UHGV virus genome: UHGV-1847238
DNA length: 13,618 nucleotides
Origin: a virus
Direction: 5' to 3' (one strand)
Shown: positions 5,991 through 7,714 of the stretch, one piece after another
How positions within the stretch are numbered: the stretch's first letter is position 1
How the letters are laid out: each line of letters begins with the position of its first letter
Notes under the pieces: model-generated
Told to the model about the DNA's origin: nothing
Databases searched by the model: none
Seen by the model: only the letters and a program-made list of their open reading frames with translations
Translations under genes and position numbers: made by a program

Positions 5991-6554
5991 ATGAGGCTAA
6001 CCGTGGGTAAGTATCACTGGAAAGTAGAAAAACAGCCTGAGTGGTACGTGAAAGCTGTCAGAAAAACTATCGCAGCGTTGCCGGGTGGTTACGCTGAAGC
6101 AGCTGACTGGCTGGATGTAACAGAGAACGCATTATTTAACCGCCTTCGTGCCGATGGCGATCAGATTTTCCCGCTGGGATGGGCAATGGTTTTACAGCGC
6201 GCGGCTGGCACTCACTACATTGCGGATGCTGTCGCACAGTCTGCTGGTGGGGTGTTCGTATCGCTTCCTGAAATTGAGGAAGTAGAGAACGCCGATATAA
6301 ACCAGCGCCTGCTGGAAGTCATCGAACAGATCGGGAATTACTCAAAGCAGATTCGTTCGGCAATCGAAGATGGGGTCGTGGAGCCACACGAGCAGACAGC
6401 AATTAATGATGAGTTGTATCTGTCAATTTCGAAGCTCCAAGAGCATGCAGCACTGGTCTACAAAATCTTTTGCGCTCCAGAAAAGAGTGACGCCCGCGAG
6501 TGTGCAGCTCCGGGCGTCGTGGCGTTTTGTGTCTGTGGAGAAACTAACGCATGA
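5991..6554 (+). CDS. CII-like regulatory protein (phage 186 CII/CP76- or YdaT-like family), 187 aa
   Basis: Sits immediately downstream of cro, as cII does in lambdoid phages. Family assignment is a low-resolution pattern match. Stop overlaps the next start (ATGA). An alternative GTG start at 6003 has a better SD (GAGG). Confidence 0.5.
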   Translation: MRLTVGKYHWKVEKQPEWYVKAVRKTIAALPGGYAEAADWLDVTENALFNRLRADGDQIFPLGWAMVLQRAAGTHYIADAVAQSAGGVFVSLPEIEEVENADINQRLLEVIEQIGNYSKQIRSAIEDGVVEPHEQTAINDELYLSISKLQEHAALVYKIFCAPEKSDARECAAPGVVAFCVCGETNA

Positions 6555-7714
6555 ACAGTTTAACGGCAAATAACCGTTTGTCGCAACAGCTGGTGGTCAG
6601 TGTCGCTGAACACCTGTTGTTACGGCATGAATGCAGATTACCAAATCACCTGGCTGTAAGTAACCACAGAGAACTTTACCTGACTGTGGGGGGCGAGTTG
6701 TGCAGGAACTTAACCGCTGGTTTCGTGACGGAAGAGGGCTTTATGTCCATGTTATTCGTTGGGAGCCAGAAACACAGCGCGTTATCTATCTTCGCAAAGA
6801 CTACCCGCATGAGTGCTTTAGTCCTTTGTGGAAATTCAGGCGTGATTTTGTTGAGTGTGAAGGACCACCAGCACATTGATTCTGCCATTCCGGGACGTTA
6901 CACTGTTCAGGCACCTTATAAAGCGGGTGCCGGGATTGGCGTCCTGAAATTGATTACTGAGCATAACCGCGCTCATGCGGTTTTTTCGTGTCATGAGCAT
7001 TGCTACGCCCAAATTATGGTGGGGCGTACAGGGCCGACTTCGGTCGGGCCGGGTTCGGTAGTCTCCGGTAACGCCAACCCTGTACGTCTCACCACCTCTG
7101 TGATTGGCGTCCCATGTGGTGAGTTTTCTAAAAAACTGACTACCGGGGCTGTCACTATGACTACTCTCCCAACCCTCTCTCAACCTGAAATTGCCATCGT
7201 TGATGGTCAGGCTGTTACATCTTCTTTGGCTGTTGCTGACTTCTTCTCTAAACGTCATGACGATGTTCTGAAAAAGATTCGCATTTTGGATTGTTCTCCA
7301 GAGTTTTGTGCCCGCAATTTTGCGGAGACATCAATTTTGGTACGCCAGCCCAACGGCGGTACTCGCAAACTACCTTGCTATCAAATAACCCGCGATGGCT
7401 TTGCGTTTCTTGCTATGGGTTTCACGGGTAAACGTGCTGCCCAGTTCAAAGAGGCATACATCAATGCCTTTAACCAGATGGAGAAACAGCTTTCAAAGCC
7501 CGCTGTACCGAGCGACGTTGCACATAACGCCAGTGTTCTCTATTCCTACATTTCATCAATTCATCAGGTCTGGTTGCAGCAGCTTTATCCCATGCTGGAA
7601 AAAGCTGAATCACCTCTGGCTGTAAGTCTGTATGACCGAATTAACGATGCGGCATTTCTTGCCCGTCTTATTCATTCGTCGCTGAACTCTTCAGAGGTAA
7701 GGGGGCGCAAATGA
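6551..7714 (+). CDS. Rha-family phage regulatory protein ORF, 387 aa; the Rha-like domain begins at internal Met 7157 and the N-terminal ~200 aa are unassigned
   Basis: Residues from MTTLPTLSQPEIAIVDGQAVTSSLAVADFFSKRHDDVLKKIRIL onward resemble the Phage_pRha domain. The frame is open from 6551 and that ATG overlaps the upstream stop (ATGA), but the N-terminal half has atypical composition; see findings. Confidence 0.6.
   Translation: MNSLTANNRLSQQLVVSVAEHLLLRHECRLPNHLAVSNHRELYLTVGGELCRNLTAGFVTEEGFMSMLFVGSQKHSALSIFAKTTRMSALVLCGNSGVILLSVKDHQHIDSAIPGRYTVQAPYKAGAGIGVLKLITEHNRAHAVFSCHEHCYAQIMVGRTGPTSVGPGSVVSGNANPVRLTTSVIGVPCGEFSKKLTTGAVTMTTLPTLSQPEIAIVDGQAVTSSLAVADFFSKRHDDVLKKIRILDCSPEFCARNFAETSILVRQPNGGTRKLPCYQITRDGFAFLAMGFTGKRAAQFKEAYINAFNQMEKQLSKPAVPSDVAHNASVLYSYISSIHQVWLQQLYPMLEKAESPLAVSLYDRINDAAFLARLIHSSLNSSEVRGRK

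Follow-up and report, generated by a model that had tools for sequence, protein, structure and literature searches.

In phage lambda, Rz/Rz1 provides the case of a complete small gene that lies inside another open reading frame (ORF), in a different frame and with its own start. The Pfam family 'Ash', which takes its name from P4, is one of the labels commonly met in the type of ORF examined here. In P4 itself, translation of the eta ORF from an upstream promoter reportedly prevents termination, in work attributed to Forti et al. in 1999, and the immI region of phages P1 and P7 is said, in work attributed to Citron & Schuster in 1990 and to Biere et al. in 1992, to consist of the c4 antisense RNA, icd and ant.

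In Gifsy-1 of Salmonella, the isrK promoter drives isrK-orf45-anrP, where orf45 is conserved in its nucleotides but not in its amino acids and its translation is required for anrP (Hershko-Shalev et al. 2016, PMC4825925). P4 Ash has been equated with the epsilon derepression protein (PMC8628076), so some members of the Ash family may be real proteins. The ymfM gene of e14 has been published as the 'cell division inhibitor YmfM', SfiC (Ansari et al. 2020, bioRxiv 10.1101/2020.11.19.390815). A Z-ring block on expression is published only for the K-12 ymfM ORF, within which DUF4222 also lies.

Here we analyzed a window of 13,618 nucleotides, the whole stretch presented from virus genome UHGV-1847238, in which a 387-codon ORF ends in a Rha-family gene. 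With a probability of roughly three in four, we consider 6551-7156 to be a run-on frame laid over four elements of a lambdoid early-right operon, and not the N-terminal half of a protein.

Results

The long open reading frame

An ORF check of the window found 387 codons open on the + strand from 6551 to 7714. This confirmed the coordinates of the preliminary description, according to which ATG 6551 overlaps the preceding stop codon as ATGA and the frame is open for 606 nt upstream of 7157; the stop codon is that of ymfL. Given the base composition of the region, 202 stop-free codons have P ~7e-5. The features assigned to this segment are collected in Table 1.

Table 1 Features of the segment, with the evidence on which each assignment is based.
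Feature	Positions	Strand	Evidence
ymfL (CII/CP76-like regulator)	5991-6554	+	Pfam PF06892, E 1.2e-14; PGAP 'protein YmfL' in identical DNA
YmfM-type N-domain, coding part in the long frame	6551-6699	+	homology, pN/pS, ymfL junction
G6 run, Shine-Dalgarno-like for the DUF4222 GTG, slippage-prone	6688-6693	+	sequence, relatives
DUF4222 gene (59 aa, starting with GTG), embedded in the -1 frame of the long ORF	6700-6879	+	Pfam/PHROG, pN/pS, AlphaFold
Long frame reading across DUF4222 (aa 50-102)	6700-6856	+	unconstrained amino acids, free of stops
Promoter-like site for the IsrK/C4 transcript	6876-6904	+	sequence reading; near-invariant in 11 diverged alleles
IsrK-like sRNA (seqA / a1-b1 equivalent)	6911-6987	+	RF01394, terminator
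Predicted C4 antisense RNA, P1/P7 type	7012-7099	+	RF01695, compensatory stems
Predicted C4 target sites a2 (TTGGCGT, 7104-7110) and b2 (GACTACCGGGG, 7138-7148)	7104-7148	+	co-variation, duplex energy
Rha-family gene (antirepressor-like, AnrP/Ant-type), 185 aa	7157-7714	+	PF09669, coding signal

Residue and codon counts agree with the earlier portrayal of the N-terminal half as His/Cys/Ser/Gly-rich, poor in charge and marked by rare codons. Residues 1-202 contain 5.4% His, 3.0% Cys, 8.9% Ser and 9.4% Gly, and charged residues make up 13.9% of this part versus 20.5% of aa 203-387. Codons 1-102 include 12 rare ones (AGA, AGG, TTA and others), and the next 100 include 1. AlphaFold prediction for the whole ORF assigned pLDDT values of 56-66 to the Rha domain and of 20-26 to aa 1-212, with confidence climbing only at aa 223; because the underlying alignment was shallow (19 rows), the low values are weak evidence.

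The ORF is widely distributed. A prophage of E. coli strain EC4 is 100% identical to the window, and the segment is present in 3085 E. coli records, with 510 records covering at least 80% of the query. In many Stx phages, and in E. coli, Shigella and Salmonella genomes numbering in the thousands, the ORF is labelled as a 'Rha family regulator' or as a 'peptidase' of 321-387 aa that has an 'Ash domain'. Identical DNA carries differing annotations in different genomes. A mutation as the reason for the shorter annotation in strain 219 was ruled out, the DNA being identical across the ORF. Papers on Stx-phage typing handle Rha/Ash as a protein architecture.

Comparison of synonymous and nonsynonymous changes in each frame, as had been proposed, reveals that constraint switches frame along the ORF: it lies in the long frame over the N-domain and in the DUF4222 frame over 6700-6879. 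The suggestion that the upstream half is a novel domain fused to Rha gives way to a three-part reading, in which aa 1-49 correspond to a YmfM-type N-domain, aa 50-102 to an unconstrained, out-of-frame read of DUF4222, and aa 110-202 to what would be translated IsrK, C4, promoter and terminator sequence.

Homology indicates that 6551-6699 encodes a YmfM-type N-domain, with predicted translational coupling to ymfL. GGAG lies ~10 nt 5' of ATG 6551, within ymfL, and the product shows homology to the initial 50-60 aa in e14 YmfM and in 40 enterobacterial relatives. The e14 gene shares with it both the ATGA junction with ymfL and the N-terminus MNSLT, then NRL.Q. For the commonest type, pN/pS is 0.36 in the long frame and 1.24 in the two other frames; polymorphisms within the window's own lineage (14 synonymous, 22 non-synonymous) point to weak constraint. 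Outgroup phages carry the N-domain as a separate gene of 58-69 aa. Neither Pfam nor NCBIfam holds a family for it, and the phrog_1170 match of the YmfM-type ORF is confined to the overlap part.

The embedded DUF4222 frame

Profile, diversity and structural evidence together identify 6700-6879 as a genuine, separate 59-aa DUF4222 gene with its own predicted Shine-Dalgarno sequence and GTG start. An alternative frame had been singled out earlier as more protein-like, with a possible GTG start at 6700 preceded by GGGGGG, and this proved correct: the frame is open throughout 6700-6879, encodes exactly the peptide quoted at that time, and has its GTG 6 nt 3' of the G run. The ORF matches positions 3-51 of the 53 in the PF13973 profile with 50.4 bits (cut-off 27) and phrog_1343 over its full length (positions 1-59 of 59, E 3e-36). 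AlphaFold models the product as an SH3/Tudor-like small beta-barrel with a pLDDT of 85.6.

Selection on this frame is visible in pN/pS (0.24 in the ingroup, 0.13 in the outgroup) and in codon-position diversity (0.21/0.14/0.48). Over the same stretch, the long frame and the third frame have pN/pS of 1.42 and 1.75, respectively, and in the outgroup the long frame reaches 2.37 versus 0.13 for the DUF4222 frame. Among 66 haplotypes of the window's own type, polymorphisms are 12 synonymous and 10 non-synonymous when read in the DUF4222 frame; read in the long frame across 6700-6856, they are 3 synonymous and 19 non-synonymous.

Relatives start DUF4222 with ATG, GTG or TTG, always at the same position, and carry GGAGG or AAGGAG where the window has its G6 run; homologues are 59-70 aa long. 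An Stx1 phage carries DUF4222 with an ATG start and without the YmfM N-domain. Two overlapping genes, another of the arrangements suggested earlier, thus holds for 6700-6879, where DUF4222 is a real and conserved gene. The literature yielded no link between DUF4222 and ymfM. The 74-aa gene at 7711-7935 was considered as a DUF4222 paralogue and is unsupported as such (hhalign probability 4%).

The IsrK/C4 region and the start of Rha

Covariance-model matches and compensatory changes identify 6876-7148 as a predicted antisense-RNA immunity switch of the P1 c4 / P4 cI / Gifsy-1 isrK kind. The RNA genes in 6880-7156 had been missed by the preliminary description. The promoter-like site consists of a -35 element TTGATT (6876-6881), a 17-nt spacer and a -10 element TACACT (6899-6904); it agrees with the consensus at 8 of 12 positions, too few for the threshold of the promoter scan. 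The putative -35 contains the DUF4222 stop codon, and the Rfam IsrK match begins 7 nt 3' of the site. That match is full length and scores 59.3 bits against a gathering score of 50. Within the IsrK-like sRNA lie the putative C4 target sites a1 (TTGGCGT, 6936-6942) and b1 (GATTACTGAGC, 6952-6962), followed by an intrinsic terminator made up of a stem at 6965-6982 and a T run, and the terminator stems vary between alleles yet keep pairing.

The C4 model fits over its full length (positions 1-87 of 87) with E 4e-16 and a score of 82.3 bits, compared with a gathering score of 45. Its stems pair in 351 of 351 cells, and both partners have changed in 8 pairs and 39 cells, a level reached by 0 of 500 shuffles; slid controls pair at 34-49%. 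Both the IsrK and the C4 match recur in all seven related loci tested. ATG 7016, inside C4, corresponds to the start of the orf45 leader in Gifsy-1 and is in frame with Rha. The single-stranded element of C4 co-varies with a1 and a2, giving four classes. The b2 site overlaps the Shine-Dalgarno region of ATG 7157, and the loop of C4 hairpin 2 is predicted to form a duplex of -18.7 kcal/mol with 7137-7150, a site 8-10 nt before that ATG. Mean energies of the C4 loop/b2 duplex are -20.4 kcal/mol for cognate and -15.0 kcal/mol for non-cognate combinations.

The Pfam family PF10554 ('Ash') matches aa 117-212 of the long ORF at 43.1 bits against a cut-off of 26, a stretch of low predicted confidence (pLDDT 20-26) that coincides with the IsrK and C4 RNAs. 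Over 6880-7156, pN/pS is 0.85, 0.91 and 0.90 in the three frames, and codon-position diversity (0.254/0.250/0.254) has no periodicity; neither measure gave any sign of protein-coding evolution in the 'Ash' stretch. Its conservation is fully explained by the predicted promoter, terminator, RNA stems and antisense/target co-variation.

Protein-coding signal resumes only at 7157, which makes Rha a protein of about 185 aa. Counted from this ATG, the Rha frame has a pN/pS of 0.30 and the two other frames have 1.1 and 1.5; diversity at the three codon positions is 0.11/0.08/0.22. PF09669 matches at 94.3 bits (cut-off 29.9) over aa 223-312 of the long ORF, beginning 20 residues after Met203, the residue encoded by ATG 7157, and TIGR02681 matches at 90.9 bits. 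Other alleles carry GGAGG 8 nt 5' of the same ATG. The coding signal, the conserved Shine-Dalgarno sequence and the position of the antisense-RNA target all agree with the earlier placement of the Rha start at Met 7157. An 'Ash-Rha' start at GTG 6857, initially favored because the phiP27 ORF begins exactly there, was superseded by the RNA genes and the absent coding signal.

Openness of the run-on frame

Across DUF4222, all 37 diverse sequences keep the long frame free of stops, compared with a null expectation of 0.10-0.35, a stop avoidance that rests on few codon columns. Codon choice at these columns depends on context: GTY/CTY is used exclusively where GTR/CTR would create a stop in the long frame, and codons ending in R are common at control sites. 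By parsimony, at-risk Val codons underwent 12 Y-to-Y and 0 Y-to-R changes, in contrast to 23 and 18 at control sites. In the RNA region, 11 alleles of ~72% identity have 0 stops in the long frame versus 2.4 and 4.8 in the other frames (P ~0.015 per shuffled allele), and length differences are exclusively multiples of three. The openness of 6880-7015 is partly not independent evidence, because it is inherited with near-invariant sequence. On the reading favored here, selection keeps the frame open while being indifferent to the encoded product.

A frame without any function is the alternative that survives best, and we judge it unlikely. Openness would be a by-product of DUF4222 codon usage and conserved RNA sequence, and the locus would yield nothing beyond a YmfM N-domain that carries a junk tail, DUF4222, the RNAs, and Rha started at 7157. 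The lack of amino-acid constraint in the run-on parts agrees with this explanation, as does the DUF4222 antisense in-register frame, which codon usage keeps open at 86% versus a null of 42-75%. An outgroup lineage (L312-L330) has a stop in the long frame across DUF4222, and much of 6880-6950 is invariant, hence open by inheritance. A by-product is difficult to reconcile, however, with the openness of all 37 sequences, with codon choice specific to stop-risk sites, with parsimony counts of 12:0 versus 23:18, or with the open frame of every RNA-region allele.

We regard it as quite improbable that the 387-aa ORF is a true multidomain protein (YmfM N-domain, linker, Ash, Rha) in a dual-coding region. 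Homologues with stops throughout 6551-7156, so that only Rha would be coding, were not found. All relatives examined keep the frame open, with indels only in multiples of three, and this speaks for such a protein. ATG 6551 has both a Shine-Dalgarno sequence and the ATGA overlap with ymfL, PF10554 exceeds its cut-off, the long ORF is annotated by PGAP and by phage annotators, and the phiP27 Ash-Rha ORF has an ATG start exactly at the equivalent of aa 103. Against a multidomain protein stand the missing codon periodicity of the 'Ash' part with its pN/pS of ~0.9 in all frames, the long-frame pN/pS of 1.4 over DUF4222 and the low pLDDT at aa 1-212. The RNA features already account for 'Ash' conservation, and the Gifsy-1 equivalent is an sRNA plus a 45-aa leader whose frame differs from that of anrP.

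That the N-domain and DUF4222 form one protein through a programmed -1 frameshift or transcriptional slippage at G GGG GGC (6687-6693) is highly improbable and was rejected as a conserved mechanism: although the heptamer G_GGG_GGC has the register from which a -1 shift would lead to the DUF4222 frame, the G run is unconserved (TACCGGAGGGCAAAAC or CAGAAGGAGACAG stands there in other types), five relatives (L004, L008, L011, L037, L039) have a DUF4222-frame stop 3-6 nt before its start codon, outgroup phages have two adjacent, separate genes with an 8-11 nt overlap, and the Stx1 phage has DUF4222 without the N-domain. The frameshift-linked product put forward in the preliminary description is likewise not conserved. 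Natural one-base variants of the G run do join the two coding parts: G7 variants (P0172, 44 contigs) encode that very fusion. A Salmonella phage reaches a similar outcome by a different one-base insertion.

Discussion

We propose that the stop-free frame most likely lets ribosomes on the lytic transcript read through the switch. In the lysogen, the internal promoter alone would be active and most transcripts would end at the IsrK terminator. Read-through RNA would give C4, which would pair with a1/b1 and a2/b2, and pairing at the downstream site would hide the rha ribosome-binding site and keep Rha off. Upon induction, transcripts would arise from the upstream early promoter, and ribosomes entering at 6551 would keep to one stop-free frame over DUF4222, the terminator, C4 and its targets into rha. 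Translation of the run-on frame would block the terminator hairpin, Rho loading and C4 pairing, with the proposed consequence that Rha is made despite immunity, an effect reported for the eta ORF of P4.

A frame of this type would be a natural case in which openness is selected without selection on the product, indistinguishable from coding for gene finders and for Pfam-style family building. Should 'Ash' prove to be translated sequence of an RNA switch, the actual regulator would be the 185-aa Rha protein under C4/IsrK control, and the RNA specificity classes would define a second immunity system in these phages.

In E. coli K-12, ymfM holds the same embedded DUF4222 ORF (L003, 3502-3681; PF13973, 67 bits), and the C-terminal half of 'YmfM' is an out-of-frame read without constraint. 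The published pBAD-ymfM clone spans all of the DUF4222 domain and provides it with an AAGGAG Shine-Dalgarno sequence and a TTG start. What has been published as the gene for the long-sought division inhibitor sfiC contains a conserved, unannotated gene in another frame. In enterobacterial lambdoid prophages, the frame across DUF4222 may be stop-free purely for ribosomes; in the window's lineage such a conduit may also cross the antisense-RNA switch, so that immunity would no longer affect expression downstream. In K-12 e14, the division block linked to SOS has been ascribed to the 112-aa YmfM protein; it may be due to the embedded DUF4222 protein or to the 55-aa N-domain alone. We advance the two proposals jointly, a ribosome conduit in lambdoid prophages together with SfiC activity from DUF4222 or the N-domain, only as a tentative possibility.

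Comparison with known systems

The window ORF resembles e14 ymfM in its placement after ymfL, its ATGA start and its homologous N-domain. It differs in that the e14 YmfM frame (112 aa) stops 12 nt before the next gene, a stop that the window lacks, its frame continuing instead, and e14 is without the IsrK/C4/Rha module. In lambda Rz/Rz1 both overlapping frames are constrained, in contrast to the window, where the outer frame is unconstrained over the overlap.

Gifsy-1 has the same order of elements: promoter, IsrK sRNA with an intrinsic terminator, STnc1160/orf45-like stable RNA/leader, and antirepressor-like gene. The leader is conserved in nucleotides rather than amino acids in both, and the window's Rfam IsrK match reaches 59 bits. 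Unlike Gifsy-1, where orf45 AUGA-overlaps anrP, the window's leader (ATG 7016) lies in the Rha frame with no stop, and this frame continues ~460 nt further 5' through the promoter, DUF4222 and the YmfM-type gene.

With P1/P7 immI, the window shares the C4 fold, an upstream a1/b1 and a downstream a2/b2 pair, a downstream target that covers the ribosome-binding site ahead of the antirepressor(-like) gene, and specificity classes formed by co-variation of the antisense element and its targets. In contrast to P1/P7, the regulated gene belongs to the Rha family and not to Icd/Ant, an IsrK-type terminator stands between a1/b1 and C4, and the module sits within a lambdoid early-right operon, directly after ymfL-ymfM.

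Finally, as in the P4 cI RNA/eta/kil arrangement, a long ORF starts 5' of the immunity promoter, and like eta it overlaps the antisense-RNA gene, its targets and a terminator and is in frame with a shorter nested gene. The terminator in the window is intrinsic, whereas P4 timm is Rho-dependent, and the run-on frame of the window, with the role proposed here, also crosses a whole embedded protein gene.

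Prophage setting and annotation of the 387-codon ORF

The window represents a lambdoid E. coli prophage (e14/SfV type) that is integrated beside a tRNA-Thr gene and has 100 % identity to strain EC4. The early-right operon comprises ymfT (cro-like), ymfL, the 387-codon ORF, a 74-aa gene and further genes. Inspection of the sequence bears out what the preliminary description observed: the ATGA overlap at 6551, the 606 nt of open frame preceding Met 7157, an N-terminal half with few charged residues whose rare codons cluster in the first 102 codons, and an alternative-frame ORF with a GTG start preceded by a G6 run. 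Its interpretation, which offered a novel domain fused to Rha, two overlapping genes or a frameshift-linked product, is right only in part: an overlapping gene exists, and the components all belong to known families (DUF4222, YmfM, IsrK, C4 and Rha). Three points are new: the 387-aa 'Rha/Ash' protein found in many annotations is a run-on reading frame laid across these known parts, this frame stays open although coding constraint is absent, and a conserved gene is concealed in ymfM, a characterised gene.

Features of the early-right operon in and around the 387-codon ORF (window positions)
Feature	Position	Description
ymfL	5991-6554	early-right operon, directly before the 387-codon ORF
Long ORF	6551-7714 (+)	387 codons
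DUF4222 gene	6700-6879 (+)	-1 frame relative to the long ORF
Promoter-like site	6876-6904	TTGATT-17 nt-TACACT; ends 7 nt before the first base of IsrK
IsrK sRNA (RF01394)	6911-6987	full length, Rfam 59.3 bits (gathering score 50)
Intrinsic terminator	stem 6965-6982 + T6	at IsrK end
C4 antisense RNA (RF01695)	7012-7099	full length, Rfam 82.3 bits (gathering score 45)
74-aa gene	7711-7935	phrog_1153, equivalent to SfV orf38

PGAP annotates one 387-aa Rha protein in strain EC4 (L001 6652-7815) and, on identical DNA in strain 219 (L002 1801-2815), a 321-aa Rha protein accompanied by a DUF4222 'pseudogene, missing C-terminus'; the labels 'peptidase' and 'antirepressor' are used for this protein elsewhere. 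The 74-aa gene gave weak PHROG cross-matches to DUF4222 (E about 0.01-0.03), a kinship left unsupported by a profile comparison probability of only 4 %.

A conserved gene is embedded in the long frame

In the alternative frame the peptide is DUF4222 at full length, scoring 50 bits against PF13973 (cut-off 27) and matching positions 1-59 of 59 in phrog_1343. The family is small (81 clusters, mostly 55-80 aa, in a profile search of 1.8 billion representatives), and stand-alone homologues of 59-70 aa are annotated in Escherichia, Salmonella, Citrobacter and Kosakonia. The comparison set comprised 42 diverse genomic loci, 160 close relatives and about 120 further loci. Substitutions in the overlap concentrate at third positions of DUF4222 codons (diversity 0.21/0.14/0.48), and pN/pS over the overlap is 0.24 for the DUF4222 frame, 1.42 for the long frame and 1.75 for the third. 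The outgroup repeats this pattern (0.13 in the DUF4222 frame versus 2.37), as does polymorphism among 66 haplotypes of the window's type, with 12 synonymous and 10 non-synonymous changes in the DUF4222 frame versus 3 and 19 in the long frame. In every locus the start codon (ATG, GTG or TTG) and a Shine-Dalgarno sequence are found at one fixed position, a stop in the DUF4222 frame lies 3-6 nt ahead of that start in five lineages, and an Stx1 phage has DUF4222 with an ATG start and without the upstream YmfM part. DUF4222 is a real embedded gene with its own start.

Single-base changes (proteins P0172 and P0168) also join the YmfM-type N-domain in frame to DUF4222. A G7 variant of the G6 run (6688-6693) yields the 109-aa P0172 (44 contigs), and in Salmonella phage 118970_sal3 a T is inserted (+1) within DUF4222 (L208 1380-1400). 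N-domain/DUF4222 fusions of this kind could reflect true polymorphism or sequencing errors in homopolymers. Opposite DUF4222, the other strand has an ORF of 70-90 codons (window 6676-6888 (-); e14, L003 3406-3678 (-)); it is probably not a gene, because its openness in 86 % of relatives is near the 75 % predicted by the gene's own codon usage.

The first 49 codons constitute a YmfM-type N-domain, where K-12 e14 ymfM matches the start of the ORF, the ymfL junction and the first residues. The commonest type conserves the N-terminal ~55 aa (pN/pS 0.36 vs 1.24 in other frames), and in Yersinia/Serratia-like outgroup phages the N-domain is a separate 58-69-aa gene with its stop 8-11 nt past the DUF4222 ATG. 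The annotated 'C-terminal half' of YmfM, and aa 50-102 here, are thus an out-of-frame read of DUF4222. In most prophages this read stops 12 nt short of the next gene's ATG; that gene shares its frame and has a Shine-Dalgarno sequence formed by DUF4222 codons. In the window's lineage (DUF4222 C-terminus VECE) the stop is missing and the long frame runs on.

In e14-type prophages (L003 3640-3685; L005-L043), the final codons of DUF4222 (…EIE..HEH*) also supply the Shine-Dalgarno sequence (GAGG) and the ATG for the gene that follows, which encodes a replication protein and is always in the YmfM frame; the DUF4222 stop overlaps the second and third codons of that gene (ATGAGCACTAA). Three 78-aa variants (P0196, P0200, P0207) carry in-frame deletions that remove DUF4222, the RNA switch and most of rha, joining the N-domain to the last ~28 Rha-ORF residues (LYDRINDAA...EVRGRK). 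Outgroup loci L292-L311 (e.g. L292 1208-1375) contain a separate 55-58-codon ATG ORF over DUF4222 in the +1 frame, its ATG overlapping the N-domain gene stop as ATGA, with a hydrophobic N-terminus (MKIQIILIGCIWISAVFVFVSYVM) and pN/pS of 2.4; in L312-L330 that frame has a stop at about +107.

The 'Ash domain' is a predicted RNA switch

Pfam assigns aa 117-212 of the long ORF to Phage_ASH (PF10554). A phiP27 homologue with identical start had suggested an Ash-Rha protein starting at GTG 6857, a candidate overturned by the Rfam scan, which detected IsrK and C4 and, as a weak match, the a1/b1 target. Both RNAs were found in all seven related loci tested; neither was found in e14. The -35 element of the promoter-like site includes the DUF4222 stop codon.

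Eleven alleles of the RNA stretch (median identity 72 %) display no codon periodicity (diversity 0.254/0.250/0.254), with pN/pS of 0.85, 0.91 and 0.90 in the three frames. The C4 stems are paired in 351/351 cells, with 8 pairs altered on both sides, a result reached by 0/500 shuffles, and the terminator stems vary in sequence among alleles with pairing kept. The single-stranded element of C4 has four variants (ACGCCAA, TTTCCAC, GTTCCAA and CTGCGAA), and each allele carries the complement in the IsrK loop (here 6936-6942) and downstream of C4 (here 7104-7110). In C4 hairpin 2, the variable loop has its complement at 7137-7150 (-18.7 kcal/mol). This target is the Shine-Dalgarno region of ATG 7157, with GGAGG 8 nt ahead of that ATG in most alleles; loop/target duplexes average -20.4 kcal/mol for cognate and -15.0 for non-cognate pairs. 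Covariation and complementarity point to an RNA switch beneath the 'Ash domain'.

The C4 element and its matching targets define four specificity classes (window 7069-7077, 6936-6942, 7104-7110; L051, L208, L209, L211), and hairpin-2 loop variants are far more numerous, a pattern suggesting that, among E. coli, Shigella and Stx phages, this second immunity system falls into several hetero-immune groups. P2-like phage P88 (L210 813-1010) carries IsrK and C4 just upstream of an annotated 'derepression protein' (epsilon-like) gene, and on that strand no annotated ORF covers them; the Ash match in Pfam thus coincides with the RNA region rather than with the epsilon gene.

Coding evolution resumes at 7157, with pN/pS of 0.30 in frame versus 1.1 and 1.5 off frame and codon-position diversity of 0.11/0.08/0.22. 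The Rha domain begins 20 residues after Met 7157. AlphaFold modeling of the whole ORF (pLDDT 20-26 for aa 1-212, 56-66 for the Rha domain) adds weak support because its alignment is shallow. Together these data indicate that the actual product is an antirepressor-like protein of the Rha family, 185 aa long, with a predicted C4 target as its ribosome-binding site.

The long frame stays open

Although its sequence is unconstrained, the long frame lacks stops across DUF4222 in 37/37 diverse sequences, where synonymous recoding yields an open frame in 10 % (flanking-gene codon usage) or 35 % (the gene's own usage). Wherever a Val or Leu codon could form a stop together with the codon that follows, it is always GTY or CTY, whereas R-ending codons are common at control positions; tree-based changes at these at-risk sites number 12 Y-to-Y and 0 Y-to-R, versus 23 and 18 at control four-fold sites. 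Within the RNA region, the long frame has 0 stops in 11 alleles, versus averages of 2.4 and 4.8 in the other frames (P about 0.015 per shuffled allele), and length differences are multiples of three only. Sequence comparison thus provides good but not overwhelming evidence for an open frame maintained in the absence of coding constraint, because one outgroup lineage carries a stop across DUF4222 and part of the RNA region is near-invariant among alleles.

The best available explanation, by analogy, would be read-through of the P4 eta type. Forti et al. are said to have described in 1999 a long ORF, eta, that starts upstream of the P4 immunity promoter and overlaps the antisense RNA, targets and terminator; its translation on upstream-promoter transcripts reportedly prevents termination. 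On the early lytic transcript, ribosomes starting at 6551 would continue past the terminator and the C4 targets and reach rha; in the lysogen, internal-promoter transcripts would remain under C4 control.

Consequence for E. coli K-12 ymfM

The e14 ymfM gene (112 aa, 'cell division inhibitor YmfM') contains an embedded DUF4222 gene (L003 3502-3681) with a TTG start behind AAGGAG and a PF13973 score of 67 bits. Its assignment as SfiC relied on 'the open reading frame' cloned into pBAD24 plus a deletion, with no frame-specific mutants made (Ansari et al. 2020, bioRxiv 10.1101/2020.11.19.390815), and earlier library clones also contained the whole ymfM region. The cloned ORF includes DUF4222 codons 1-53, the entire folded domain according to AlphaFold. 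The product that blocks Z-ring formation may therefore be the N-domain, the unconstrained tail or DUF4222. Our literature search found no mention of the ymfM/DUF4222 overlap.

Likeness to known immunity loci

The arrangement in the window is the same as that of the Gifsy-1 isrK-orf45-anrP locus. In Gifsy-1, the isrK promoter drives the operon, and some of its transcripts continue past the terminator at which IsrK ends; the stable RNA STnc1160 overlaps a leader of 45 codons that is conserved in nucleotides but not in amino acids; and the antirepressor AnrP requires leader translation (PMC4825925). The same authors point out a resemblance to P4 seqA and CI RNA (PMC4825925). The window's equivalent of the leader starts at ATG 7016, in frame with Rha. 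The P1/P7 immI locus (c4-icd-ant) follows the same logic as the window's switch.
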